NCBI GenBank assembly: GCA_023957015.1
Contig: JAMLHR010000003.1
Span: 22,555 to 86,554, forward strand
From: Thermomicrobiales bacterium
GTDB lineage: Bacteria; Chloroflexota; Chloroflexia; Thermomicrobiales; UBA6265
DNA: 64,000 bases
Reading direction: 5' to 3'
This document shows, piece by piece, positions 16,144 through 50,660 of the stretch. The first letter of the stretch is position 1; every line of letters starts with the position of its first letter. A program made the translations under genes and the position numbers. The notes below the pieces were generated by a model that worked only from the letters and a program-made list of their open reading frames with translations, did not search any database and was not told the origin of the DNA.

Positions 16144-17337
16144 TCACGATGTCGCCTGCCCGGCGGAAACGCCCTCTTCCAGGTGGGACATGAAATCGGC
16201 CACGATCGGATTTAACTGATCCCAATCCTTGAGAAAGGAATCGTGACCATTCGGAGAGTTGATCAGTTTGTAGCGAGCATCCTTGCCGCGATCAGCGAGG
16301 CGGGCCGCCAGCAACTCGATATCATCCGGCGGGAAGAGCCAGTCGCTACTGATACCGACAAAGAGCATCGGTGCCGCGATCTTCTCGAACCAGTGCTCAT
16401 CGCCGCCATCCCGACCCACATCGTACATATCCATGGCCCGGGTGAGATAGAGATAGCTGTTGGCATCGAAGCGTTGCACCAGCGCCTTGCCGTGGTAATG
16501 AAGATAGCCCTCGACATCGTAGGTTGGACCGAACTCGGGGTAAATCGACTTTCGCACCGCCGGATTGCGACCGAAGCGATTCCCCAGGCTCTCGCGGCTG
16601 TGATAAGTGGTCATTGCTGCCATGCGAGCGATAGCGAGACCCTGTTCCGGAAAGACGCCGAACTGGAGATAATCGCCATTGAGCCAATTGGGATCGGCCA
16701 TGATCGCCCGCCGTCCGACCTCACCATGGACGGCGATACCGAGCGCGTTCAGATTACCGGCGGCGGCGATGCAGCCGGTGCCGGCGACGATATCGGCGTG
16801 ACGCGTCGCCCACTCCAACGCCTGGAAGCCACCGATGCTGCCGCCAATCGCGATGACGCGGGTGATGCCGAGCGAATCCAGCAGCAAGCGTTGCGTCGTG
16901 ACGATATCGCCGATCGTGATTAGCGGGAAGCGGAGTCCGTAATAGCCACCGAAGGCATCCTTGCTGGCCGGACCGGTGCTGCCCTGGCAGCCACCGAGTA
17001 CATTCGCGCAGATGATGCAGTGGGTGCGGGTATCGATTGGCTTGCCTGGTCCAATCACCGGTTCCCACCAGCCGCCATCGCCGGCGGCAAGCGAATCGCC
17101 TGTGAGCGCGTGCAGGATGATGACGGCGTTATCGCGGGCGGTGTTGAGTTCGCCCCAGGTGCGGTAGGCGATGGTGACGTTATCCAGCGTATCTCCGTGC
17201 TCCAGCGTGACCGGACCCAGCTGGGCCAGCTTCATCACGCCCTCTTGCGATGGTCGATAGCTCGGCACGACATGGAGATGCCGTCGCATGAGTTCGTTCG
17301 TGGTGGCTGGATTGTCGTCGATACCGCTCATGGTCAC
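16144..17337 (-). CDS. metX: homoserine O-acetyltransferase
   Basis: 397-aa ORF with alpha/beta-hydrolase nucleophile elbow AIGGSIGGFQALEWA. MetX-typical N-terminus: LEHGDTLDNVTIAYRTWGELN. Start is GTG 17337 or ATG 17331. Confidence 0.92.
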   Translation of the reverse strand: MTMSGIDDNPATTNELMRRHLHVVPSYRPSQEGVMKLAQLGPVTLEHGDTLDNVTIAYRTWGELNTARDNAVIILHALTGDSLAAGDGGWWEPVIGPGKPIDTRTHCIICANVLGGCQGSTGPASKDAFGGYYGLRFPLITIGDIVTTQRLLLDSLGITRVIAIGGSIGGFQALEWATRHADIVAGTGCIAAAGNLNALGIAVHGEVGRRAIMADPNWLNGDYLQFGVFPEQGLAIARMAAMTTYHSRESLGNRFGRNPAVRKSIYPEFGPTYDVEGYLHYHGKALVQRFDANSYLYLTRAMDMYDVGRDGGDEHWFEKIAAPMLFVGISSDWLFPPDDIELLAARLADRGKDARYKLINSPNGHDSFLKDWDQLNPIVADFMSHLEEGVSAGQATS

Positions 17338-17379: not shown

Positions 17380-17533
17380 AAAAACGCCTCCTGCGGATGG
17401 GAGGCGACAATGCGGATGCAGTGTAGCTGATCCCTTATCTCGCAGATACATCTGCCGGAGTTGGCACCTTGTGAGCATATGCTCCAGGTTGCCGGGCTTC
17501 ACAGGGCCGAGTCCCTCCACCTCTCTGGATAAG
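17380..17533 (-). promoter_or_regulatory. SAM-I (S-box) riboswitch with intrinsic terminator expression platform, upstream of metX-metY
   Basis: The minus strand reads CTTATCCAGAGAGGTGGAGGGACTCGGCCCTGTGAAGCCCGGCAACC...AAGGTGCCAACTCCGGCAG...GCGAGATAAGG (17533 down to 17434). This matches the conserved SAM-I core, including the P1 pairing CTTATC/GATAAG. It is followed by the terminator CGCCTCC-catccgca-GGAGGCG-TTTTT (17406 down to 17380), 43 nt before metX. Confidence 0.9.
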
Positions 17534-17554
17534 GTCATTCAGTTGTTAGCGGCG

Positions 17555-17584: not shown

Positions 17585-17700
17585 GACATCTTGCTGTTTT
17601 ACCATCTTGCTGTCTGAATAGCTCGTTGGATTCGCGACGATCCGGACTTCTTTCCAGGGCATACGACCTGGACACTCTGTCGGGAACTGCTTTGGCTATG

Positions 17701-18723
17701 CTAGTCTGCAGGAGACTCCAGCAACGTCACCGAAACGGTTTTCGTATCCACCAACGCCCGCACACCCAGCGGCATGGCGATCATCGGGGAGTAGTGGCCG
17801 AAATCCATGTTCGTGATTACCGAAATCATGTTGCTGATCGCTCTCCGGAGCAGTCGATCCAGAGATGTCCCAATGATCCTCAGGGAAGTCATAGGGCTTC
17901 GCGAACAGGAGCCCTGCGATTCGGTCGAAGAAGCGCCCGTGAACTCCAAACCTCCCATGAGTTCATCGGTGGCGTAGGCGGACTTCAGATCGCCAGCGGT
18001 TTCGATGAAGAGGATGGTGCCGTCCAGATTCGGCCAGTACCGCGTTCCCCACAGCAGATTGAGGCACTCCAGGCATCCGCCAATCAGCGGTCCTTCGGCG
18101 CGACCTTCTTTGAGGACAGTCCAATCGGTATTGGGTTCATGAGTGCGGCGGCGAGTTCGATCCTCGCCTGTCTCCCAATCCAGAAACTCGCGTGTCCACT
18201 CTTCTGGATAGGGAACGTTGCCTGGGGAGTCGGACGATGTGAGGAGTTTGAGCATCCAATCCTGACTGATCTCCGGCATCCTGGGGAACTCGGCCCAATC
18301 GCTCAGCAGATAGGGGCCGTTGATCGTGCAGAGACCTGTCATTGCATGGATCGCGACATTGAGTGAGGTGGTATCGCTGTACCCGATGAACGGCTTGGGA
18401 TTGGCGCGGATCAGGTCGAAATCCAGATATGGAATCACATCGATACTATGCGTACCACCGATGGTGCACATGATCGCGTTCACCCCAGGATCGGCGAACA
18501 TGGCATTGATATCTGCAGCGCGGTTTTCGGCAGTATCGGAGACATGTCCGCGATTGTTGAAGGCATGCGGTGCGATTTTGACCCGGTAGCCCAGTGATTC
18601 GATATAGCGAACACCATGCATCGCGCGTGGCAGGAATGTCTCACCACCAAACCACGATGGACTGACGATGCCGAAGCATCCTCCTGGTCCAAGAGCCGGG
18701 TATTTCAGCAGGTTTGTGCCCAT
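17701..18723 (-). CDS. S66-family LD-carboxypeptidase (MccF-like), with an internal out-of-frame stretch
   Basis: 340-aa ORF. Motifs: GIVSPSW, AENRAADINAMFADPGVNAIMCTIGG, the nucleophile region FIGYSDTTSL, and C-terminal ITNMDFGH. Codons corresponding to ~17862-17947 read better in another frame (see findings). Confidence 0.85.
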   Translation of the reverse strand: MGTNLLKYPALGPGGCFGIVSPSWFGGETFLPRAMHGVRYIESLGYRVKIAPHAFNNRGHVSDTAENRAADINAMFADPGVNAIMCTIGGTHSIDVIPYLDFDLIRANPKPFIGYSDTTSLNVAIHAMTGLCTINGPYLLSDWAEFPRMPEISQDWMLKLLTSSDSPGNVPYPEEWTREFLDWETGEDRTRRRTHEPNTDWTVLKEGRAEGPLIGGCLECLNLLWGTRYWPNLDGTILFIETAGDLKSAYATDELMGGLEFTGASSTESQGSCSRSPMTSLRIIGTSLDRLLRRAISNMISVITNMDFGHYSPMIAMPLGVRALVDTKTVSVTLLESPAD

Positions 18724-18775
18724 CCTGATCCCTTTCAGTCAACTGGATGCAATGATAGCAACGAGGTTTGGCGTG

Positions 18776-18904
18776 ATGAATACCGCCACGTGTAAGCGAA
18801 TCGCCGAGGAACGGCATCGGGTGATGCAGACGTTCCTCGACGATTTCATGCGTGAGTGGGAGATGACTCATCGCTATGTGAACGAGCAATTGATCCGGGA
18901 GTGA
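18776..18904 (+). CDS. possible small protein (42 aa), unsupported by homology
   Basis: An ATG preceded by gagg at -11. Product: MNTATCKRIAEERHRVMQTFLDDFMREWEMTHRYVNEQLIRE (helical, charged). It lies in the gap between divergent/convergent genes. Confidence 0.25.
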   Translation: MNTATCKRIAEERHRVMQTFLDDFMREWEMTHRYVNEQLIRE

Positions 18905-18906
18905 CG

Positions 18907-19145
18907 TTACTCCGTCGCCTGCTTGGTCAACACCACGCGCCAGGTCTCAGGACCCTCTTCCAGGTACTCCCACCCCAGCTGACCCGGACGCTCGGCCATG
19001 AACTGGTAATAGAGCGGCAGGATCGCAAGTCGTTGACCAGCTCGAACGACTCACCGGCAGCCAGATCGTCGAACGTCTGGAACAGGAGCGGATGTCGCTC
19101 ACGCGGGGCGATCGGGCGAACATCGATAGACTTGGTGGTGCTCAT
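18907..19145 (-). pseudogene. DUF2249-domain protein, frame lost at ~19020-19032
   Basis: MSTTKSIDVRPIAPRERHPLLFQTFDDLAAGESFELVND is in one frame. The conserved continuation ILPLYYQFMAERPGQLGWEYLEEGPETWRVVLTKQATE* is in another. The span is 239 nt (3n-1). RBS is acaggagcacacacATG. Confidence 0.7.
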
Positions 19146-19188
19146 GTGTGTGCTCCTGTCACGAATGCGATCCGGGGATGACCGACTC

Positions 19189-20235
19189 TCACCCGGATGT
19201 AACAATACCTACCATAGTCCTCGGATATGATCGTGAGTATCGAGATTGCTGATATCGTGTCGGGATAAAGCTTACGCGTCGATGCCAGACCCCTTGCTCA
19301 GTCGTTGTCCCCGGTCCTAGTGGTTGTCGAGCTCCATTTCGCCTGAGTACCTGGCCTTGTTCGACGGCAGTGAGCCAGGCGCTCATGCCCTCGTCCCAGT
19401 GCGATGGATAACCGAATCCCTGTGATACCGCCACTTGCCTTGCGGCGTTACGGAACAACGTCGTGATACCGTGGATCGCCTTCCAAATATCGTCGCGGTC
19501 GGCGTGAGGGTAGGTGCTTAGCAGCAGTGCATAATCTTCCGTTGGCAGGAGGTTTGCCAGAACTTGCCCTGTTTGCCGATGCGACGTGCCACGCATACAA
19601 CTCGCCGACGTACCAACCCAGCATCTGGTAGAGCATGTCCCGCACCGGCGATTCCAGATGGGAGACCACTTCATCGGATACTGACCGCGCGCGTTCGCTT
19701 TGGCAACGTTGTTCAGGCACCACCAAAACTCGTTGCAGCAGGCTAGATACCCGTTCTCCGTCGGAGGTGTATGCCAGAATGCAGCTCCGGTTGAGAGAGA
19801 TCTTTAGTCGGCAACAATCCCGTCTTTATCAAGCAGCACCTGGCGCAGAGGCGTCGTTGTGGAAATCGGCAACGCTGCATTAACTCATCCATCATCTGTA
19901 GATCAACGCGTTGATAACTCAGCAAAGATCATCAAGCCAGGCATAGCGGTGCATCATCGGCGGCATCTCCCAGCCGAATGCCGATTTGTACGGCTCCTGC
20001 ACCATGATCGGCTCACCGAATACCCGACTCCAGTCAGGATCCTGCAGGTATCCGGAGAGATCGCTGACGATCAGTGCGATATCGAAGTCCTGCCAGGCAT
20101 CAGCGGCCACCGCCGGATCGGTTCGCGAGCCATCCAGGAAGATCGCGCGTATCGATCATCCACGCGACGAGTTCGAGGACGCAATCAATAGCCGTGAGTA
20201 TCGGGAATTTGCTGATATCGTGTCGGGATAAAGCC
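19189..20235 (-). pseudogene. aminoglycoside 6-nucleotidyltransferase (ANT(6)/AadK-like) relic with at least four frame changes and no clear start codon
   Basis: Family-typical segments are scattered over three frames: AIFLDGSRTDPAVAADAWQDFDIALIVSD...FGEPIMVQEP, QRVDLQMMDE, RQVLLDKDGIVAD, ACCNEFWWCLNNVAKA and LPTEDYALLLSTYPHADRDDIWKAIHGITTLFRNAARQVA. Confidence 0.7.
19232..19275. repeat. copy 1 of a ~45-nt direct repeat flanking the ANT(6) relic
   Basis: cgtgagtatcgagattgctgatatcgtgtcgggataaagcttac, compared with cgtgagtatcgggaatttgctgatatcgtgtcgggataaagcctac at 20193-20238. Confidence 0.9.
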
Positions 20236-20238
20236 TAC
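20193..20238. repeat. copy 2 of the ~45-nt direct repeat flanking the ANT(6) relic
   Basis: Shares a 26-nt identical core, ttgctgatatcgtgtcgggataaagc, plus the 11-nt cgtgagtatcg with 19232-19275. Confidence 0.9.
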
Positions 20239-20383
20239 AAACATTTGCATTGGCATTTGGCCGTGTCCCTGTTACTACCAACCGGCCGGTGATAACGTCT
20301 CTCGACGGTGCCGTATAATAATCCGACTGAAATACTCGGGAAACCATCAAATCCCCAAGTACGTAATATCGGAGTGCCATCAG

Positions 20384-42905: not shown

Positions 42906-43313
42906 ACGCGCACGGTATGTTGACAGCGCCGTACGGTCAATGCGGTCGGTACACCCGCATGGCACCCGAGGCACCCTGGGAACGCATACGCGTTAAGGCG
43001 ACGTTGACCAGGTTTACCTGTCAATGCACGCAGAGGATTCGGTTGATGTTCACGCATCAGCCGGTTTGTATAGCCAGCTTTTGTGCTGGCCCGTTTTGGT
43101 GTGGTGTGGCGTTCAGATAGCTACTGGTACGCGCGCGTAACACCTTATGGTCACCAGAAAGGCTGGGGTTGCGATGCTTTGGCACGCGGAGAAAGAGGTT
43201 ATGGCTAGGAGAGAACACAGTCGGTATCTCGTCACCAATAAGACGCAGACAATTGCATCTGGTCAGGTGTTTCCCTTCGTGACGCCAGCGGATGCAACAT
43301 GGGGGAAGCAGAG

Positions 43314-46300
43314 ATGAGGTTCGCTAACTCAACAAGGTTCAGGGTGTTCCTGGCCGTATTCATGATGATCTCGATGGTGCAATCGTCATTTGCACAATCG
43401 ATGCAGGCATCTCGTCCATTGACGGGTGGCGTCACTATCATCCTGCGGGATGAGAAGGGTGCGAACCTCGCCGATGGCTGTTTCACATTCAAGCTGACAG
43501 GTGTTGATGATTTCAGCGCCTGTGATGAAGACGGCGACGGCCAGATCGATCTCCGCAACTTGCCACCTGGCAAGCTGAAGGTCACACAGACCTCCGGCCC
43601 CACGGGCTTTGCGTTGGCCGATCCATTGACGGTCACCATCCAGACCAACAGAATCTTGCCCGTTCCGGTAGCGGTATCGGCGGTCGTGGCAGAGAGGACA
43701 TCTCTCGTCCAGGGACCGCTTTTGGCGTTCCAGGATGCAGGTGTCGATGTTGTCACTGGCTCACCCGAGCTGGAACCAACGGAGACACCGTCTGAGACGC
43801 CAACCGAGGCTCCGGCCATCGTGCCCGCGTCTCTTCAGACGGAATCGACTGATGAGGCGACAGAGGTGCCGACGGAACCGGCAACGGAACCAGCCACAGA
43901 GGAAGTGACGGAAACCGCCACTGAGGTCGTTACCGAAGTTGCAACGGAACCGGCCACAGAAGCTCCGACGCTGGCAGCAACCGAAGCTGCCACGGAAGCT
44001 CCGACGCAGGTAGCAACAGAAGCTGCCACGGAAGCTCCGACGCAGGTTGCAACGGAAGCTCCAACCCAGGTTGCAACCGAAGCTCCATCGGTTCAGACCA
44101 CGAACGTGACGCTGACCATTGATGCCGGTGGAACTGACCTGACCGGTGCGCCGTGGAAGCTGTATGCCGATCTCGCCTCCATGGCGGCGCTGACCGAGTA
44201 CGCCTCGGGCACCGTTGGTGCTGGCAACACGATCGTCATTCCGAACGTGATTGACGGCAACTACACGCTGGTGATCTCACCAGCCGGTATGGATCCGATC
44301 ACCAACACCTTCACCGTAGTGGGTGATGGCAATGGCAACCAGACCATTCCGCTGACCGCCACCGTTTCCTCACCCAAGATTCAGAGTCTCATAACGCCAC
44401 TTGATACTGGCGCGATGGAGTTTGGCGTAACCTGCGCCCCTCTGAACTCAGAAGGTCGCATCCAGTCCAGGATCTTTGTCCTCAATGTTCCTGATGGTAA
44501 GGATGCTTCTCCAGCGCCGAGTTTCACCTATCAGGTGTTTGATCGCTTCGGCAATGGCGGCCCCATCACGCCCGGCACCATGACCTGGAATGCTTCCACC
44601 AATCGGTGGGAATCCGAGGTCTTTGATGTTGTGGCACGCCCGCTCACCTACGTTGCGACGGCGGCCGGTGTTCAGAACACCCTGCATGGTGCATGTGCCG
44701 TCTTCAATCCGATCATTCCGGCAATTGACACCATGGCCAAGGATGAGCAGGGCAAGGACCTGCCAGACGGAAGCCAGGTTGTCGCCGGCACCAAGTTCCG
44801 CGATACCGCTCAGTTCAAGGGGCTGGATGGAATCCCGGGCGCGCTTCAGGCGCTCGAGGGGCAGACGGTTGTCTACAACCTCTATCGCAATGCGGCTTGT
44901 ACCGGTACGCCTGAGAAGACCTTCTCGGTGATTGTCGGCGCGAACGGTGTCATTCCGGATTCCCCGCTCTTCGATTCGGCCACGGTTGGCGATGGCACCT
45001 ACGATTGGCAGGTGACATTCACCCCAACCGGTAGTGCCGCCACGAACTTCCAGGGTGCCAAATCCGAATGCCAGAGTGAGACGGTGATCGTTGGTAAGAC
45101 GACGCCGACGTTGACAACGGCGATGCGGCGCGTGACGGGCACCAACACCAGCACAGGGATTAATCAAAACGGCAATGTCACCATCGGTGCCACCGTTTTC
45201 GACCGATCCACGCTCACGAACGCCTCCACAACGGTGACTGGTTCGCTGACCTATACGTTGATGATGGGCACCTGTGCTCAGAACACCGTCGTTCTGGGGC
45301 CGACAACGTTGCAGATCACCAATGGTGTGCTGCCGGAGTCTCCCCAGTTCACGCCAGCCGCAGTTGGGACGTATCACTGGATCGTCACCTATAGCGGCGA
45401 TAATCTGAACAGCGACGCCGAGAGCAAGTGTGGTGCCGAGACGTTCAATGTGATCAAGGCCAAGCCTTCGATTACGACCGAGGTGATGAAGGAAGGCAGC
45501 AGCACGCCAATCACTGGTAAGTCTGTTGACCTGAACACCAAGGTGTATGACACCGCCACGGTTTCTGGCCTGTACAAGCCAGCGACTGGTGACTACACCG
45601 GTACGGTGACCTACAAGCTCTATGCCAATGCCAACTGCACGGGAACTCCGCAAGAGTTCACGGTGACGATCAACCCAGACGGCACCGTGCCGAATTCGCC
45701 ATCGGTCGAGATGACCGCTCGCGGTACCTACAACTGGGTGGCTACCTACAATGGCAATGAGTTCAACGATACGGTCAGCGGTAACTGCGGTGACGAGAAG
45801 TTCACCGTTGAAGGCAAGACGCTTGGTATAACCACCATACCGCAGTACAAACCAGAGGGAAGTCAGAACTTCCAGGATATGACCAACAACCAGACGATCA
45901 ATGCGCCGGCGACGGTGCGTGATACGGCTGTGTTCACCGGTCTCGACCCCGCTGACCCCAAGCCAACGGGTACGGTCACATATCGGCTGTATGCGAATGA
46001 CACCTGCCAGGGAACAGCGCTGTTTACCCAGAGTGTCACTGTCGCCGCCGATGGCACGATTCCTCCGGCACCGACGAACGGTGTGACGCCAGCGCTTGGT
46101 ATCGGTCGCTATAACTGGAAGGCGACCTATAACGGCGATGGGAACTACGGAACCGCGACGCATGATTGTCTGACCGAGCAGTTCTTCGTCAGCGCAGCGG
46201 GCGACGGTGAAGGTTATATCCAGACCCAGGTCTATCGCGCCGATAACAACAATGCCATTGCCGATGGCGGCACCATTCCGATGGGCCGTAGCGCCCGCGA

Positions 46301-49300
46301 TACCGCCACCTTCTTCGGGAGCATTGCCCAGAACAATGATCCCAACAAGGTTGCATTCGATGGAACGGTGACCTACAAGCTCTTCAATACCCAGTCGTGT
46401 GGCTCCACACCGATCAAGACCTGGACGTATAACGTCAAGGCTGGCGATGCCGTCCCGGCGATACCATCGGCCGAAGCCTATCGCTTCACTGCGGCTGGCG
46501 AATACGATTTCCAGGTGACCTACGAGTGGACTGCCGGTGGTAAGAACCATACGGTGAGTAGCCAGTGTCTCACCGAGACCGTCATCGTCAGCAAGGTCAC
46601 GCCATCGGCGACAACCACCCAGATGAAGTCCGGTGATCCGTTGGCGAACATGACGCAGAACATCCGCGTCCTGGGACCGGTCACCGTCGGCGACACGATG
46701 CTGAACAACACGGTCACGTGGCCAGGCAATGTTGACCTGACTGGTATCCAACCGAACGGCACACTCGTCTACACGCTGTACAAGCACAGCAGCACCTCCA
46801 ATAGTTGTGGCACCAGTGCCACTGTGGTTCAAAGCTTCTCGGTTAATGTTGTTGATGGTGTGTTCCAGCCAAGTGGCACCACCACCATTGCAGCTGATGC
46901 CTACGGTGTCTACAACTGGACTGTGAAGTTCGAACCAACGGGCGATTCTGCGACGAGGTACGAAGGTTGGACAACCACCTGCGGCGACGAGCGCTTCTTT
47001 GTTGAGGCGCAGCCAACGCTGACCACCGAGATGTACAAGAACACCGCGAACTCCGATGCTGGTGCGGTGATCCTGCCCGATAATGAGACCATTGATGTTG
47101 GTATGTTTGTTCGTGACACGGGTACGCTCAAGGACTTCGTGCCGGGCTCTGCTAACGGTAATGTTGTCTTCAAGCTCTATCGCAGTGCCGATTGCACCGG
47201 TACAGTCGTGTTCGAAGATAGCGTCTCTGTTACGAACGGTGTGCTGGCCAGCGGTACGGACTGGTACGAGGTCACAATCAGCGGTGACTACAGTTGGAGC
47301 GCAACCTTCACCCGTAGCGGTAGCGGTAACAACGCCCAACTGACACGCAGTGCGAACAGCGACTGCGCCACCGAGACCTTCAAGGTGAATCCGCCAAGTG
47401 GCAATCCGTCCATGGTGACGATCATGCGTGACACGAGTAACAACGTGATCCCGCACAAGTCGTTCGTCTCTGGCACGGTATCGGTGACCGACCAGGCCGT
47501 GTTCTCAAACATGCCAGGCGATGCCTCCGGTAAGGTGACCTACAAGCTCTACCCGAACGCCACCTGTGATGGCAACCCAGTTCACACCAGTGAGAAAAAC
47601 GTTGTCAATGCGCAGGCACCGATCTCTGATCCGTATCTGTTGCCACTGGTTCAGGCACCTGAGGGTCGGATCTACAGTTGGACGGTGGAGTTTGTCAGCA
47701 CAGATGGCCAGATAAAGGTGGATAGCCCGTGCGGTGCTGAACAGTTCCGCAAGTACGATGCCATTCAGTACGGTGCCGAGACAGTCTGTGTCTACAACAC
47801 CGCAACGGGGAACACCTCCTTCACCATCACGCTGCACCCGCAGCCGGTGCCAGGTGGCGTCTACGCCAATCCGACGGTGGTGGTCAACCCCTTCAACCTG
47901 GATCTTTCGGCGGCAACGCAGGAGACCGTGGTCAATGAGTGGGTGATTACCTTCAATGACAAGCCATGGCGGAAGATCACTGGGCGTGCCGATTGGAACA
48001 ACGGTGATCCGAACTCTTGGGCAACCTTCGAAGTTGGCTGCAATAGCCAGCCGATGAAGCCCGAGATCTCGACCAAGATGTTCCAGGTTGGCGTCGTCGA
48101 CGAGATGAAGAACGACACGACGGTTGAGATCGGTACGGTCGTCTATGACACCACGCAGGTCACCCCGGGTACCAGCACGGTCATCATGGACGGTACGCTC
48201 ACCTACGAGCTGTTCCACAACAGTGGTTCGGATCAGCAGTGCACGCTTGCCAATCGTGTCTTCTTCGAAGAGCACAAGCTGGACAAGACTCCGTGGGACA
48301 AGATGCCGAACTCCGGCAACTTCACGACGGACAAAGCCGGTACCTACTACTGGGTGGTCACATTCAACCCGCCAGCTGGTCAGTACCCGGATAACGCGAC
48401 AGCTGTGAGCAAGTGTGGTGAGGAGTACTTCAAGGTCAAGCCGAATCTGCCGGAACTCGTGTTGGAGAAGACGGCTGTTCAGGGTGAGATCGTTGCTGGT
48501 CAGAACGCGGTCTACGAGATCAAGGTCACCAACAAGGCCGATGGCCCAGCCATGGGTGTCGTGGTCACGGATACGTTGCCGGATACCACGAACTACACGT
48601 GGAAGGTGACGAAGAACGGCGCTGAGCTCACATTGACCGATCTCGGTAATGGCAAGGTCTCGTTCGCTATCGGTGATCTCCCGAATAAGGACGACTCGAT
48701 ATCGGTGACCGTGACCGGCACGCCGAAGCTGGGCAGCGACTACAACCCGACACCGCAGGAATGCGAGAAGGGTGTCAAGCTGACGAACAAGGCCGTCGCT
48801 GTTGATGACAAGAAGAACGAGTCCAATGAGGATTCGGCTGACATCACAGTGAAGTGCAAGCCGCAGTTGCCGAAGATCACGGCGCAGGGAATCGCCTGTG
48901 TCAATGGTCAGACGACGGGCAAGAACGAGTTCACGGTTACTCCAGGTGTTGGTGTGACGATCACGCATGTGACCTACACCGAAGTTGGCAATGCTGCGAA
49001 CACGGGTGCAGCGACGCCAGGAGCAGGGAACACCTACTCGATACCGGCGAGTGCCGGGAACGGGACGTTCACGCTGACGGTGCGCTACACGATCAATGCG
49101 AACTACATCGTGCCGACGAATCCGGCGCCGATTGCGCATCCGGATGGTGGCTACCAGGTCACCGATACGATGAAGCTCGAGCCGTGTGTTGACTCTGATG
49201 TGCCGACGGTGAAGGTGACGAAGGCGGTTTGTACGTCTGACGTGCTGACACCGCACAAGCTGACGCTGAACGCAACGACCGGATGGACGGTTGTGAGCGT

Positions 49301-50660
49301 GACGCCGAACGCGATTGGGAACCCGGCAGCTGGCTTTGGTGACTTCACCTGGCCGGGTGGCGAAGCGGTGACGGTTGTTGTCACCTACGAGTTGAACGTC
49401 GGACAGCAATGGCCAGCGAACTTCCCGCCGACGGGACCGGATGCGAATGGTGGTACATGGAAGAAGGTTGACAACAACCCGAACCAGGTGACGTACACGA
49501 TCACGTTCGAGAAGGAAACGTGTGAGCCAGAGATCAAGGTCGTCAAGAAGGCGGACAAGGCTGAGTACAAGCCGGGTGACACCATCACCTACACGATCAC
49601 GATCACGAACACGGGTGAGGGAAGCGCGAAGGATCAGACGGTCCTGGACACCCTGCCGATGAACGTGTTCTGGAATGGCGGTGCGGTTGTTGTTACCCCG
49701 AACGGTACGACGATCAGTGGACCGACCACGAGTACAGATCCGATTTCGGGTGCACAAACACTCAAGTGGACTGGCTTGACCATTCCGTACAAGAGTGAGG
49801 TCACGATCTCCTTCGGTGCCGTGATCCCGGTTGATGGCTCCGTCTGTGGTGAAATCACCAATACCGTCAGGGTCACCCCGGTTGATAAGGGCGACAAGGA
49901 AACAGTATTGGTACGTTGCTCCTCGATGGTCGACGCCAAGAAGACCGCGGATCTGAGCGAAGTGACCGATGCTGGCACGGTGATCAACTACACCGTGACG
50001 GTTGAGAACACTGGTAACACGGCGCTGAAGAACCTGGTGGTGACCGACCTGATTAGCGGTACCGCGAGTCCGGTGAACGTGACGCCTGGTGCTGCGACCA
50101 GCAGCCTGGCACCACTCGGATTCAATCAGGATCCGTTCCTGGGCACGATCACGACCCTGAAGGTTGATGAGACTGTCACCATCAAGTACAGCTACGTGGT
50201 GAGCCAGGCGGACATCGACAAGGGTGGACCGATTGAGAACTGCGTGATCGTCAGTAACGACACGACGGATAAGGACAACTGCGCGAAGACCAAGGTGAAG
50301 AAGAATCCGAAGGTCGAGGCGAGTAAGGTTGCCGATCTGAGTGAAGTCTCAGAGGACGGCGCAGTGATCAACTACACGATCACGGTGAAGAACACGGGTA
50401 ACGTGACGTTGACCAAGCTGCCTGTGACCGATGAGCTGACAGGAGTAGCGAGTCCGGCAAACGTGGTCTGGGGTACTGCGAGCAGCAGCCTGGCACCAGC
50501 GGGCTTCAATGAGGATCCGTTCCTCGGCACGATCTCGACCCTGAAGGTCGGTGAAGTTGTCACGATCAAGGCGAGCTACGTCGTGAGCCAGGCGGACATC
50601 GACGCAGGTGGACCGATTGAGAACTGTGTGATTGTCGAGCACGACACGACGGAAGGGTGA
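43314..50660 (+). CDS. giant surface protein, N-terminal segment
   Basis: RBS gggggaagcagagATG gives MRFANSTRFRVFLAVFMMISMVQSSFAQS. A prealbumin-like motif follows (DGQIDLRNLPPGKLKVTQTSGPTGFAL), then the linker repeats ATEAPTQV. There are nine modules ending C-x-x-E-x-F-x-V. DUF11-like segments include YEIKVTNKADGPAMGVVVTDTLP and YTITITNTGEGSAKDQTVLDTLP. Confidence 0.9.
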   Translation: MRFANSTRFRVFLAVFMMISMVQSSFAQSMQASRPLTGGVTIILRDEKGANLADGCFTFKLTGVDDFSACDEDGDGQIDLRNLPPGKLKVTQTSGPTGFALADPLTVTIQTNRILPVPVAVSAVVAERTSLVQGPLLAFQDAGVDVVTGSPELEPTETPSETPTEAPAIVPASLQTESTDEATEVPTEPATEPATEEVTETATEVVTEVATEPATEAPTLAATEAATEAPTQVATEAATEAPTQVATEAPTQVATEAPSVQTTNVTLTIDAGGTDLTGAPWKLYADLASMAALTEYASGTVGAGNTIVIPNVIDGNYTLVISPAGMDPITNTFTVVGDGNGNQTIPLTATVSSPKIQSLITPLDTGAMEFGVTCAPLNSEGRIQSRIFVLNVPDGKDASPAPSFTYQVFDRFGNGGPITPGTMTWNASTNRWESEVFDVVARPLTYVATAAGVQNTLHGACAVFNPIIPAIDTMAKDEQGKDLPDGSQVVAGTKFRDTAQFKGLDGIPGALQALEGQTVVYNLYRNAACTGTPEKTFSVIVGANGVIPDSPLFDSATVGDGTYDWQVTFTPTGSAATNFQGAKSECQSETVIVGKTTPTLTTAMRRVTGTNTSTGINQNGNVTIGATVFDRSTLTNASTTVTGSLTYTLMMGTCAQNTVVLGPTTLQITNGVLPESPQFTPAAVGTYHWIVTYSGDNLNSDAESKCGAETFNVIKAKPSITTEVMKEGSSTPITGKSVDLNTKVYDTATVSGLYKPATGDYTGTVTYKLYANANCTGTPQEFTVTINPDGTVPNSPSVEMTARGTYNWVATYNGNEFNDTVSGNCGDEKFTVEGKTLGITTIPQYKPEGSQNFQDMTNNQTINAPATVRDTAVFTGLDPADPKPTGTVTYRLYANDTCQGTALFTQSVTVAADGTIPPAPTNGVTPALGIGRYNWKATYNGDGNYGTATHDCLTEQFFVSAAGDGEGYIQTQVYRADNNNAIADGGTIPMGRSARDTATFFGSIAQNNDPNKVAFDGTVTYKLFNTQSCGSTPIKTWTYNVKAGDAVPAIPSAEAYRFTAAGEYDFQVTYEWTAGGKNHTVSSQCLTETVIVSKVTPSATTTQMKSGDPLANMTQNIRVLGPVTVGDTMLNNTVTWPGNVDLTGIQPNGTLVYTLYKHSSTSNSCGTSATVVQSFSVNVVDGVFQPSGTTTIAADAYGVYNWTVKFEPTGDSATRYEGWTTTCGDERFFVEAQPTLTTEMYKNTANSDAGAVILPDNETIDVGMFVRDTGTLKDFVPGSANGNVVFKLYRSADCTGTVVFEDSVSVTNGVLASGTDWYEVTISGDYSWSATFTRSGSGNNAQLTRSANSDCATETFKVNPPSGNPSMVTIMRDTSNNVIPHKSFVSGTVSVTDQAVFSNMPGDASGKVTYKLYPNATCDGNPVHTSEKNVVNAQAPISDPYLLPLVQAPEGRIYSWTVEFVSTDGQIKVDSPCGAEQFRKYDAIQYGAETVCVYNTATGNTSFTITLHPQPVPGGVYANPTVVVNPFNLDLSAATQETVVNEWVITFNDKPWRKITGRADWNNGDPNSWATFEVGCNSQPMKPEISTKMFQVGVVDEMKNDTTVEIGTVVYDTTQVTPGTSTVIMDGTLTYELFHNSGSDQQCTLANRVFFEEHKLDKTPWDKMPNSGNFTTDKAGTYYWVVTFNPPAGQYPDNATAVSKCGEEYFKVKPNLPELVLEKTAVQGEIVAGQNAVYEIKVTNKADGPAMGVVVTDTLPDTTNYTWKVTKNGAELTLTDLGNGKVSFAIGDLPNKDDSISVTVTGTPKLGSDYNPTPQECEKGVKLTNKAVAVDDKKNESNEDSADITVKCKPQLPKITAQGIACVNGQTTGKNEFTVTPGVGVTITHVTYTEVGNAANTGAATPGAGNTYSIPASAGNGTFTLTVRYTINANYIVPTNPAPIAHPDGGYQVTDTMKLEPCVDSDVPTVKVTKAVCTSDVLTPHKLTLNATTGWTVVSVTPNAIGNPAAGFGDFTWPGGEAVTVVVTYELNVGQQWPANFPPTGPDANGGTWKKVDNNPNQVTYTITFEKETCEPEIKVVKKADKAEYKPGDTITYTITITNTGEGSAKDQTVLDTLPMNVFWNGGAVVVTPNGTTISGPTTSTDPISGAQTLKWTGLTIPYKSEVTISFGAVIPVDGSVCGEITNTVRVTPVDKGDKETVLVRCSSMVDAKKTADLSEVTDAGTVINYTVTVENTGNTALKNLVVTDLISGTASPVNVTPGAATSSLAPLGFNQDPFLGTITTLKVDETVTIKYSYVVSQADIDKGGPIENCVIVSNDTTDKDNCAKTKVKKNPKVEASKVADLSEVSEDGAVINYTITVKNTGNVTLTKLPVTDELTGVASPANVVWGTASSSLAPAGFNEDPFLGTISTLKVGEVVTIKASYVVSQADIDAGGPIENCVIVEHDTTEG
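43846..44092 (+). repeat. low-complexity Thr/Glu/Ala/Pro/Val linker encoded by short imperfect tandem repeats
   Basis: Iterations of gcaac(a/g)gaagct(gccacggaagct)ccgacgcaggt encode (ATEA)ATEAPTQV. Confidence 0.85.

Follow-up and report, generated by a model that had tools for sequence, protein, structure and literature searches.

The stretch of DNA analysed here (64 kb; the window) probably carries a strain-specific relic haplotype of an ancestral stretch with an ANT(6)-like and a DUF2249 gene, in a clade that is losing the ANT-like gene. Judged from its sequence, the ANT-like gene is dead as a result of an ectopic 46-nt copy of a short element (E) and many frameshifts, in agreement with the decay that an earlier note on this DNA had described. 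The direct repeat formed by the two copies of E is a recombination scar that links ANT-bearing and ANT-less haplotypes. We regard the locus as an ordinary gene loss caught half-way, with three states visible: intact, shattered with bracketing repeats, and cleanly deleted with one copy. The features are listed in Table 1.

Table 1. Features of the locus in window coordinates, followed by the junction and element sequences.
Feature	Positions	Strand	Content or basis
Diverged haplotype block	17586..20192	.	ANT relic, copy B, DUF2249 pseudogene, small ORF, S66 peptidase
S66 LD-carboxypeptidase-like gene	17701..18723	-	ORF open; nucleotide alignment to L092, protein alignment
DUF2249 (PF10006) pseudogene	18907..19146	-	lesion cluster ~19033-19016, NDHDPKP motif destroyed
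Rest of putative DUF2249 promoter and leader	19147..19239	-	TACTCA 19239-19234, TATGGT 19216-19211, 5' UTR with hairpin-forming stretch
Copy B	19232..19275	-	native E, ~90 nt upstream of DUF2249 start
41-nt spacer, ANT stop to copy B	19276..19316	-	sequence reading
ANT(6)-like (PF04439) pseudogene body	19317..20192	-	~codon 7 to stop TAG 19319-19317; Pfam, tblastn, frameshift-aware alignment
Copy A	20193..20238	-	ectopic 46-nt copy of DUF2249 element E (GTAGGCTTTATCCCGACACGATATCAGCAAATTCCCGATACTCACG), within 5' end of ANT-like ORF
Probable original ANT start region	20239..20270	-	RBS AGGGA 20270-20266 and first six codons ATG CCA ATG CAA ATG TTT 20256-20239
Junction of copy A and ANT in window			GATACTCACG joined to GCTATTGATTGC; junction k-mer ACTCACGGCTATTGATTGCG
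Predicted uninterrupted ANT junction (copy A removed)			CAAATGTTTGCTATTGATTGC
Deletion allele junction (sister type)			ACTCACGGTCATATCCGAGG
Sequence of E			GTARGCTTTNNCCCGACA .. AAWWWYCCCGAT

A minus-strand local alignment of 20238-20193 with 19275-19232 gave a direct repeat with sharp bounds (46 vs 44 nt), and no significant similarity was found past either edge. The copies differ by 2 substitutions and one 2-nt indel and share an exact 26-nt core (TTGCTGATATCGTGTCGGGATAAAGC; 19246-19271 and 20209-20234 on the plus strand). With up to 3 mismatches allowed, this core matched only twice in the 64 kb, and 100 shuffles gave an expectation of 0 matches. The bracketed 961 nt hold the ANT relic as their sole content. 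Both the ~45-nt direct repeats that the earlier note had seen around the relic and its observation that, on the minus strand, each copy precedes the next ORF are therefore borne out. Copy A keeps the ancestral AAATTCCCGAT and dyad, and is identical to the single E at the sister loci L092-L095 and L097 (L092-L096 in a second listing). The derived changes are in copy B: its dyad/A-tract has lost 2 nt and carries a C>T, and there is a G>A at its 5' edge. The deletion is unique to copy B, full-length AAWWWYCCCGAT being present in all other lineages, so that copy A is ancestral in sequence and copy B derived. The 41-nt spacer next to copy B showed no significant similarity to other lineages and is missing in L001, where the ANT stop abuts E.

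Several other readings of the repeat were rejected. With 2 copies in 64 kb and one per related locus, always upstream of DUF2249, it is not a dispersed repeat. A mobile cassette or att site was discarded for lack of a recombinase and because the 'empty' site retains the putative ANT start region; the marks of a MITE, an IS, an attC integron cassette or an att-site islet (dispersed copies, terminal inverted repeats, an attC-like structure or a recombinase) were not found at the repeat. With regard to a riboswitch or leader RNA, Rfam gave no match beyond noise at the repeat (E-value <= 1), and the consensus fold of four leaders contained only a 6-bp dyad with 1 compensatory pair; with no Rfam family and no covarying structure beyond the dyad, this reading was also set aside. 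The only Rfam family in the window is a SAM riboswitch, which lies elsewhere than the repeat.

Fragments of the ANT relic matched PF04439 with 60.1 and 70.2 bits (cut-off 22), and the frame-corrected relic protein aligned over 271/280 profile positions and was 58-60% identical to the L001 orthologue. The frame-aware alignment suggested as a check in the earlier note found 9 frame changes between 19936 and 19347 relative to the intact L001 orthologue. Reading of the sequence added two 1-nt deletions near 20163-20155, and there is an in-frame TAA near 19806-19804. In total, the damage amounts to at least 11 frameshifts, one in-frame stop and the 46-nt insertion between start region and body; the relic contains no single open ANT frame with a start codon. 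The earlier description of an ANT gene spread over at least five frame segments was right about the shattering, but underestimated the count.

Just upstream of copy A, three in-frame ATGs (20256-20242) follow an SD-like AGGGA. When copy A is removed in silico, the reading continues in frame as MPMQMF followed by AIDCVLELVAW.., with an N-terminal length that fits homologues. In the window the ATG lies 51-63 nt from the conserved upstream box, vs 61 nt in L001. On the basis of frame, spacing and the SD-like motif, 20239-20256 is probably the ANT start; we estimate, without formal computation, a ~2-5% chance that SD, ATG and six codons would coincide in this way, and no significant sequence similarity of 20239..20270 backs the reading. 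The earlier note had found no start codon. It is correct that none is joined to the body, but the SD and the ATGs at 20256-20242 rejoin the ANT frame once copy A is taken out. Copy A would separate the gene from its RBS and start and shift the frame, its length (46 = 3x15+1) making the insertion in itself a frameshift. Two further candidates in this region were dropped. The 45-70 nt upstream of copy A had been considered as an ANT 3'-end remnant or an extended E flank (alleles ~90 nt), but in shuffle-controlled alignments neither any ANT region nor the E flanks of other lineages proved significantly similar to it. The resemblance to E of an old ANT/esterase intergenic box (TTTCCCGAG..TCGG..TATACGG, 20335-20305) was weak and judged not significant.

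At columns invariant in four intact orthologues, the relic has 18 unique changes vs 6-12 per intact gene, which suggests relaxed constraint; of 75 columns without variation among intact ANTs, the corrected relic keeps 69. In the relative-rate test, its excess of replacements (38 vs 25) is modest and not significant. Part of the 18-change excess may reflect residues mistranslated at frameshift junctions; with so modest an excess, the indel-to-substitution ratio looks high for natural decay. Against the NCBIfam model for ANT(6) (NF033084), the corrected relic scored 177 bits and the intact L001 orthologue 201 bits. Both are below the equivalog cut-off of 420, so the gene should be named only as ANT(6)-like, and the 'resistance-type' label of the earlier note does not hold.

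The comparison with relatives that the earlier note had proposed found the segment precisely absent in five sister genomes and the gene intact in more distant relatives. In a small clade of Thermomicrobiales the ANT-like and DUF2249 genes form an ancestral pair on the chromosome, and three related lineages have it intact. In L001 the order is esterase, ANT (291 aa), DUF2249 (79 aa) and S66, and ANT is likewise followed by DUF2249 in L006 and L007-L010. The pair is syntenic and vertically inherited, with the same esterase and S66 neighbours in L001, and is not the 'accessory patch' of the earlier note. The five sister genomes (samples GCA_023957065.1, GCA_023957095.1, GCA_039809955.1; SRR2243532), whose flanks are 95-100% identical, lack exactly the bracketed 961 nt and keep a single E, so that the ANT start region is followed by one E and an intact DUF2249 gene. 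Deletion of window positions 20192-19232 in silico gave 274/277 identities to the L092 intergenic region, and L092 aligns without gaps to 23478-20192 at 98.75% identity. Repeats at both ends together with an allele that has one copy (L092-L096) are the signature of a direct-repeat deletion polymorphism. If the start reading holds, the ANT-less state would be the derived one, since the putative ANT start region is still present at the 'empty' site. ANT is also absent in L097, L098 and L099-L108, and the gene appears dispensable in the clade. Among 5.8 billion proteins there was no closer intact ANT allele than that of L001 (60%). Exact-protein look-ups for the esterase, S66 peptidase and relic ORF alleles matched no record, and a scan of the genome collection returned only a relative with 72% esterase identity.

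The element E is read here as the upstream half of a putative DUF2249 promoter. Its parts are a conserved box (GTARGCTTTyyCCCGACA), an A/T tract with CCCGA at its end and a -35-like hexamer, and it lies ~100 nt upstream of DUF2249 in nine lineages (L001, L006, L007, L092, L097, L098, L099, L105/L108), ANT-less contexts included. In an anchored alignment of the nine lineages, the -35-like hexamer (TTGAAC/TTGATT/TACTCA) is followed after 17-18 nt by a -10-like hexamer (TAAGCT/TAAGAT/TATGGT) in one register. In the window, the segment 19147..19239 is 100% identical to L092 over ~85 nt. Copy A has CTCGAA in place of the -10 hexamer at this register and would drive nothing. A strict sigma-70 consensus scan gave no minus-strand promoter, and a terminator scan nothing relevant. 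A dyad (ATCRG-N7-CCGAT), centred at ~-42, is present in the window and in the L001, L006 and L007 lineages; its left half is not conserved in L099, L105 and L108. No regulator gene adjoins E or DUF2249. Neither E nor ANT was found at more distant metagenomic DUF2249 loci (0/80), and E is therefore clade-specific. These results change the meaning of the repeat. The earlier note had assigned it to the first codons and leader of ANT; E is conserved upstream of DUF2249 even without ANT, and copy A is inserted within the ANT frame, behind ~codon 6. Its idea of a duplicated promoter/leader cassette, or of the scar of a deletion, pointed in the right direction.

The damage is not restricted to the ANT-like gene. 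Stitched across its lesion, the DUF2249 gene scored 91 bits against PF10006 (cut-off 29.5; profile positions 2-70 of 70). The lesion at ~19033-19016 combines +1, -2 and substitutions; its net -1, within the NDHDPKP motif, confirms the frameshift reported in the earlier note. It replaces AACGATCACGATCCCAAGCC, which is near-invariant in four intact orthologues (identical in three, with L092 differing at synonymous positions only), and the protein sequences of L001, L006, L007 and L092 all conserve NDHDPKP. Outside the lesion, 74/75 aa are identical to the intact sister proteins (P0129/P0125), and the differences from the L092 gene are mostly third-position. In the S66 gene, indels of +2, +1, -1 and -2 at ~17925-17824 throw 22 and 8 codons off the conserved frame, which is present in L001; they sum to zero and the ORF stays open. 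The genes around the damage, a 2453-aa ORF (7.4 kb) among them, are open, so the damage is local. We note that frame lesions thus affect three unrelated neighbours (ANT, DUF2249 and S66) in one strain-specific block, which ANT loss does not explain.

This block extends over 2.6 kb (20192-17586) and has the ANT relic at its start. Its divergence from the sisters is 6-14%, vs 0.4-1.5% in the flanks. The alignable parts are 86-94% identical to L092 and include stretches of 85-160 nt that are 100% identical, and the flanks differ from L092 by 6 in 1500 nt (left) and 22 in 1486 nt (right). Structural differences from the sister genomes bound the block on both sides; DUF2000 and MerB, found at its right edge in L092 and L094, are absent from the window. 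The alleles are not equally related on the two sides of the segment (0-0.5% on the left; 6-14% on the right, from copy B to S66), and their history must therefore include recombination between diverged haplotypes.

In the history that we favour, which as a whole we consider somewhat more probable than not, a template switch would have copied 46 nt of E into an intact ANT gene. The source would have been either E in cis or an ANT-less allele, in the latter case during recombination and where the homology stops. The interrupted gene would then have decayed, and recombination between the two E copies would have deleted ANT in the now-dominant lineage. The window strain would have retained the old haplotype, and exchange with the ANT-less population would have homogenised its flanks as far as the two structural heterologies on either side of the block. 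The anatomy of the locus, the conservation of E, the precise absence of the segment in the sisters and the divergence of the block are observed; the order of these events, the mechanism of the 46-nt insertion and the promoter role of E are inferred. With regard to the stretch upstream of the relic (U), a simple history (F->W->D) would leave U and copy A as diverged as the block, yet they show 0 differences from the sisters in 191 nt; extra recombination events that end at the heterology must therefore be assumed. It is possible, and we propose this only tentatively, that the 46-nt copy is a template-switch footprint at a homology/heterology boundary between ANT-bearing and ANT-less haplotypes, that the block is an old 'island' which persists in a Thermomicrobiales population with free recombination only because tracts are stopped by structural differences at either side, and that E is a candidate activator site controlling a DrpA-like DUF2249 protein.

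A different history, which we consider unlikely, starts from a resident ANT-less arrangement with one E. A 2.6-kb block from a ~10%-diverged ANT-bearing relative, its ANT already decayed, would have recombined in, spanning mid-ANT to the SAM-riboswitch region. Its right end would be homologous and its left end an illegitimate join of the resident E 3' end to an internal ANT position (homology-facilitated illegitimate recombination), and the repeat copies would be the E alleles of two lineages, with no duplication in cis. This single event would explain both the jump from 0-0.5% to 6-14% divergence exactly at the junction of copy A and ANT and the right-edge change beside the DUF2000/MerB indel. 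It would also be consistent with the identity of copy A to the sisters' E, with the private changes in copy B, and with the mostly third-position differences between the window and L092 DUF2249 genes, as expected from long separate evolution under selection. However, the donor ANT must begin exactly where the resident remnant ends to restore a full-length in-frame N-terminus, a coincidence of ~1 in several hundred if 20239-20256 is truly the ANT start. A donor-like ANT allele was absent among the 5.8 billion proteins and in the exact look-ups, and the stretches of 85-160 nt that are 100% identical to L092 would be odd in a uniformly foreign block.

Sequencing artefacts have to be weighed as well. 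The block could be real while many, perhaps all, of its small indels (in ANT, DUF2249, copy B and S66) are uncorrected consensus errors, with the genes perhaps less broken than they appear; the block would then be the one region where abundant ANT-less sister reads could not polish a long-read draft. All indels are indeed in segments absent from, or most diverged from, the sisters, ~6.5 kb of flanks being essentially without them. The 69/75 invariant columns kept by the corrected relic, its modest replacement excess and the near-identity of DUF2249 to intact sisters outside the lesion point the same way, and frameshift sites are modestly enriched near GATC (median 11.5 nt vs 29 expected, P ~0.01-0.04, post hoc). 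We nonetheless hold this explanation to be improbable. A mixture of ANT-less and ANT-bearing reads cannot yield the junction of copy A and ANT, which is itself enough to inactivate the gene; creation of this junction by polishing was judged implausible, as it occurs in no mixture of both alleles. In DUF2249 several changes cluster within an invariant motif, unlike a single-base slip, the S66 indels are net zero with the ORF open, copy B has substitutions too, the remaining window is clean (7.4-kb ORF included), and decay is to be expected given that related lineages have lost ANT independently. The density of frame changes, which the earlier note took as an argument for decay over error, does not settle the matter, considering that the damage is confined to a strain-specific diverged block, where polishing errors would also persist. 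The tandem gene duplication of the earlier note, that is, duplication of ANT (or ANT and leader) and deletion of most of one copy, is very improbable. Duplicating the interval from ANT codon 7 to the end of E and then deleting the first copy would give the same final structure, and the identity is limited to the repeat. This would, however, take two independent events with endpoints within a few nucleotides at ANT codon 6/7 and no ANT residues lost or duplicated. The window has no second copy of ANT, even as a trace, or of DUF2249, the identity ends sharply at 46 nt, the repeat belongs to DUF2249 and not to an ANT leader, and no relative among all fetched loci has two tandem ANT copies.

The gene-loss history offers a worked example of how a dispensable gene leaves a genome and of how short ectopic copies of regulatory DNA can arise. 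It also corrects the annotation, in that the locus is not an acquired resistance patch and, with a sub-cut-off score and a non-functional gene, should be left out of counts of ANT(6) resistance determinants. By-products are the recurrent ANT-like/DUF2249 pairing in a few Thermomicrobiales lineages and a conserved, clade-specific putative promoter element for DUF2249, a family linked to nitrogen-oxide respiration.

When compared with known systems, the relic and the intact orthologues match the whole of PF04439, as do ANT(6)/AadK/Str proteins, and share with Firmicutes ANT(6) the invariant CCNEFWWCLNNV block and the N-terminal GSR..P motif. The clade sequences are only 34-45% identical to the Firmicutes proteins, however, and the gene is chromosomal here and, in other lineages, located behind a PMT-type glycosyltransferase and a GNAT gene. 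Among DUF2249 proteins, DrpA of Thermus thermophilus is a proposed sensor of nitrate respiration (PMC6282519), and in Haloferax mediterranei DUF2249 genes are induced in denitrification (PMC11218638). The protein of our clade is likewise a single PF10006 domain of ~79 aa, matched over its full length and with the conserved His-containing motif. It differs in that there is no nar, nor or hemerythrin neighbourhood, the gene standing alone behind the clade-specific putative promoter element, and in that NDHDPKP is destroyed in the window gene.

As in activator-dependent or UP-element promoters, E has a conserved box and an A/T tract directly 5' of a weak -35-like hexamer, with 17-18 nt from there to the -10-like hexamer. 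The spacing of its dyad (5-7-5) differs from that of CRP/FNR sites, and the likeness may indicate a possible mode of action, not membership in a described regulon. The closest parallel to the locus as a whole is pseudogenisation followed by deletion between short direct repeats, with a dead gene between flanking repeats, a one-copy deletion in sisters and an intact gene in distant relatives. Here, in contrast, the upstream repeat did not pre-exist by chance and is an ectopic putative promoter fragment inside the gene, and the relic is part of a block far more diverged than its flanks, so that at least one recombination event between haplotypes was also involved.

The direct repeat on both sides of the ANT relic (the broken ANT(6)-like gene of family PF04439) is real. 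Local alignment of the two neighbourhoods gave sharp bounds, with nothing alignable past either edge; two substitutions and a 2-nt indel separate the copies of this element (E), 46 nt (copy A) and 44 nt (copy B). Across the 64 kb of the window, the 26-mer TTGCTGATATCGTGTCGGGATAAAGC has two exact matches; allowing up to three mismatches added no other site, and chance predicts none. The ancestral form AAATTCCCGAT is kept in copy A, and copy B is the sole case among all lineages in which this stretch has lost two bases and had one C changed.

The earlier note took the repeat for the leader and first codons of the ANT relic, but in relatives E accompanies DUF2249, not ANT. The loci with an intact ANT-like gene (L001, L006, L007) have a single E copy, which precedes DUF2249 by ~100 nt, and lack E upstream of the ANT gene. 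E also precedes DUF2249 in closer relatives retrieved by DUF2249 search (L092-L098, L099-L104, L105-L108), most of them with unrelated upstream neighbours and no nearby ANT gene, and is missing at all 80 metagenomic DUF2249 loci that are more distant. Anchoring the lineages on an invariant CCCGA gave one register in all, consisting of a conserved box (GTARGCTTTyyCCCGACA), an A/T tract, the CCCGA, a -35-like hexamer (TTGAAC, TTGATT; TACTCA in the window's group), a 17-18 nt spacer and a -10-like hexamer (TAAGCT, TAAGAT or TATGGT). Shuffle-controlled alignments detected no conservation between lineages 5' of GTARGC, and thus the repeat's 5' edge is the functional edge of E. Conserved 'structure' is confined to a short dyad, ATCRG-N7-CCGAT; E has no Rfam match, and a strict consensus scan at E and DUF2249 called no promoter. 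From this shared architecture, E is probably the upstream half of a putative DUF2249 promoter. Copy B is E at its native position. Copy A holds the box, tract and -35 hexamer with CTCGAA at the -10 position, and is therefore no working promoter; under every history considered, it serves no function itself.

An SD-like AGGGA and the codons ATG CCA ATG CAA ATG TTT immediately precede copy A. With the 46 nt removed, these join GCT ATT GAT in frame (MPMQMF followed by AIDCVLELVAWDDRIRAIFLDGSRTDP), and the N-terminal length and VIDxxL-like start agree with intact homologues. The ATGs are 51-63 nt from an L001-conserved box in the esterase/ANT intergenic region (61 nt for the L001 start), while the similarity of this short, unconstrained region to homologues is not significant. 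Frame, spacing and motif point to a putative original ANT start, with chance coincidence put at 2-5% by rough estimate, not computation. That no start codon had been seen holds for the body of the relic, because the ectopic copy A parts it from this putative start.

When relatives were compared, as the earlier note had proposed, the locus proved to exist in three forms: an intact one (L001, L006, L007), a shattered one between two E copies (the window), and a deleted one with one E (the sister loci L092-L096, which encode P0129 and come from three NCBI MAGs plus another two contigs). In their flanks the sisters match the window at 95-100% identity; all five have the esterase, 277 nt and then an intact DUF2249, lack an ANT gene and hold one E, whose sequence is that of copy A. 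In-silico deletion of window 20192-19232 left a sequence matching the L092 intergenic region at 274/277 positions. Since the putative ribosome-binding site and first six codons of ANT are still present in the sisters, immediately before E, their ANT-less state would derive from an ANT-bearing ancestor, if our reading of the start holds. The ANT-like gene is also absent in the more distant L097, L098 and L099-L108, which argues that it is being lost repeatedly.

Features of the locus and its surroundings (window coordinates)
Feature	Position (strand)	Observation
PMT and GNAT genes	23378-21682	immediately past esterase
Left flank	21700-20193	6 differences/1500 nt vs L092; 0 in 191 nt (intergenic + copy A)
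SD-like AGGGA	20270-20266	
Putative ANT start	20256-20239	
Copy A	20238-20193 (-)	26-mer at 20209-20234
Diverged block	20192-17586	
ANT relic	~19317-20192 (-)	deletions near 20163-20155; frame changes 19936-19347; TAA near 19806
Copy B	19275-19232 (-)	26-mer at 19246-19271
Copy B to S66 gene end	19275-17708	86-94% identical to L092, with indels
DUF2249 gene	19146-18907 (-)	
42-aa ORF	18776-18904 (+)	convergent with DUF2249
S66 gene	17701-18723 (-)	indels at 17824-17925
Unrelated 122 nt	17586-17707	
Right flank	17585-16100	22 differences/1486 nt vs L092
SAM (S-box) riboswitch	17432-17535 (-)	78 bits
Homoserine O-acetyltransferase-like gene	16144-17337	downstream of riboswitch
2453-aa ORF	43299-50660 (+)	single, uninterrupted

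The contrast in divergence, together with structural differences at both bounds, means that the block holding the relic, copy B, DUF2249, a small ORF and the S66 peptidase gene is a distinct haplotype with copy A as its left edge. DUF2249 differences from L092 fall mostly at third codon positions, which indicates a long period of separate evolution under selection and not decay. The S66 LD-carboxypeptidase-like gene still has an open 340-aa frame; relative to L092 and L001, four indels (+2, +1, -1, -2) within 100 nt shift 22 and then 8 codons off the conserved frame, in the part that separates the catalytic Glu region from the His region. This is a case of a compensated frameshift or else of a cryptic pseudogene.

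The block's right edge lies just upstream of the SAM riboswitch. In the stretch from the S66 gene to the riboswitch, L092 and L094 carry genes for DUF2000 and for MerB, of the organomercurial lyase family (L092 7543-9002), in place of which the window has the unrelated 122 nt, L001 a 520-aa ORF and L097 nothing; this site appears to be a hotspot of gene gain and loss. The 42-aa ORF MNTATCKRIAEERHRVMQTFLDDFMREWEMTHRYVNEQLIRE belongs to no Pfam family; it is conserved in L001 (74% over 39 aa), and its DNA is alignable in L092. Between it and the DUF2249 stop, ~105 nt of L092 (6243-6347) are missing at window 18905, and L001 has ~50 extra nt.

The gene between the repeat copies is recognised by PF04439 in fragments of 60 and 70 bits (gathering score 22). 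The earlier count of at least five frame changes was exceeded: frameshift-aware alignment against an intact orthologue gives nine, reading adds two single-base deletions in the N-terminal part, and there is an in-frame TAA. Both the corrected relic (177 bits) and the intact L001 protein (201 bits) stay below the NCBIfam ANT(6) cut-off of 420 bits, and hence we name it no further than 'ANT(6)-like'. DUF2249 is likewise frameshifted, as had been claimed (stitched gene, 91 bits against PF10006), by a cluster of changes, net -1, where four intact orthologues encode NDHDPKP; outside this lesion, 74/75 aa are identical to P0129 and P0125. The remainder of the window is dense, unbroken coding sequence, and its uninterrupted 2453-aa ORF speaks against an assembly prone to errors throughout.

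The lesion in DUF2249 consists of several changes clustered within an invariant motif, the S66 indels sum to zero and copy B carries substitutions as well, all of which make it quite improbable that most of the small indels are errors, even though every one falls in a segment that the sister strains lack or in which they diverge most, so that polishing with an abundant sister's reads would fail there. Errors would also fit the near-identity of DUF2249 to intact sisters outside its lesion, the 69/75 columns invariant in intact ANTs that the corrected relic retains, and its modest, non-significant replacement excess (38 vs 25). Unique changes at otherwise invariant columns number 18 in the relic and 6-12 in each intact gene, an excess to which frameshift junctions may contribute. 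Also in favour of errors, GATC lies somewhat nearer to the inferred frameshift sites than to random positions (median distance 11.5 nt vs 29 nt; P about 0.01-0.04, tested post hoc); 17701-20192 (2.5 kb) contains 30 GATC, ~3x expectation from base composition by our own estimate. Nonetheless, the junction of copy A with ANT is found in no mixture of both alleles and alone inactivates the gene, and repeated gene loss in relatives makes decay expected. Errors, if true, would alter how shattered the gene is, not the identity of the repeat.

As for the history of the locus, three courses of events agree with its anatomy, and we moderately favour a 46-nt copy made by template switch, in cis or in trans taken together. 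In cis, an intact ANT-like gene would have gained the templated E copy and then decayed; recombination between both copies would have produced the ANT-less allele, which spread, leaving the window as keeper of the old haplotype, its flanks homogenised up to the heterologies by recombination with ANT-less strains. In trans, the 46 nt would have been copied from an ANT-less allele recombining with an ANT-bearing chromosome, where homology ends. The cis history explains without coincidence why the sisters keep exactly the ANT start and E, at the cost of additional recombination events for the identical left flank. A single event would account for the divergence boundary if an ANT-less resident had imported the block from a diverged relative via an illegitimate left junction, but we consider this unlikely, as the imported ANT segment must begin exactly at the end of the resident's ANT remnant. 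Whether by template switch or import, the repeat is a recombination scar linking ANT-bearing and ANT-less haplotypes.

The label 'accessory' in the earlier note does not suit these genes. L001, a Thermomicrobiales MAG found by a genome-collection scan with the neighbouring esterase, shares the window's order (S66 peptidase, small convergent ORF, DUF2249, ANT-like gene, esterase), with DUF2249 (79 aa) and the ANT-like gene (291 aa) both intact. Among 5.8 billion sequences, only four ANT-like proteins are near (55-100% identity to L001), after which identity falls to ~45%, in Firmicutes; on their contigs, the ANT-like gene is again followed by DUF2249, in different surroundings. The L007 ANT-like gene overlaps the end of a PMT-type glycosyltransferase gene by 4 nt and that of L011 comes after a GNAT acetyltransferase gene, both gene types being neighbours of the window's esterase. 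The recurrent order and PMT/GNAT surroundings show that the ANT-like/DUF2249 pair is old and chromosomal in a small clade.

The ANT-like gene directly follows a PMT-type or GNAT gene in L006 (110-1789), L007 (472-2980) and L011 (388-1763), and in the window and the L001 lineage an opposite-strand esterase gene lies between PMT-GNAT and ANT, which suggests an older PMT-GNAT-ANT operon split by insertion. On a more distant Thermomicrobiales contig (L012 787-3228), where E is absent, DUF2249 shares a cluster with genes for a protein of 274 aa, a membrane protein of 438 aa and, downstream, a protein of 187 aa, whereas in the window it is a stand-alone gene.

The DUF2249 protein DrpA in Thermus has been linked to nitrate/nitric-oxide respiration (PMC6282519), and DUF2249 genes in Haloferax are denitrification-induced (PMC11218638); the neighbourhood of the window's DUF2249 holds no link to this pathway. 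The nearest known kind is ordinary gene loss, in which a gene becomes a pseudogene and is then deleted between short direct repeats. Unlike in ordinary gene loss, one repeat copy here would be an ectopic fragment from the promoter of the adjacent gene, and the relic lies within a haplotype block of different ancestry. The locus is thus a new example of a known process and no new kind of element.
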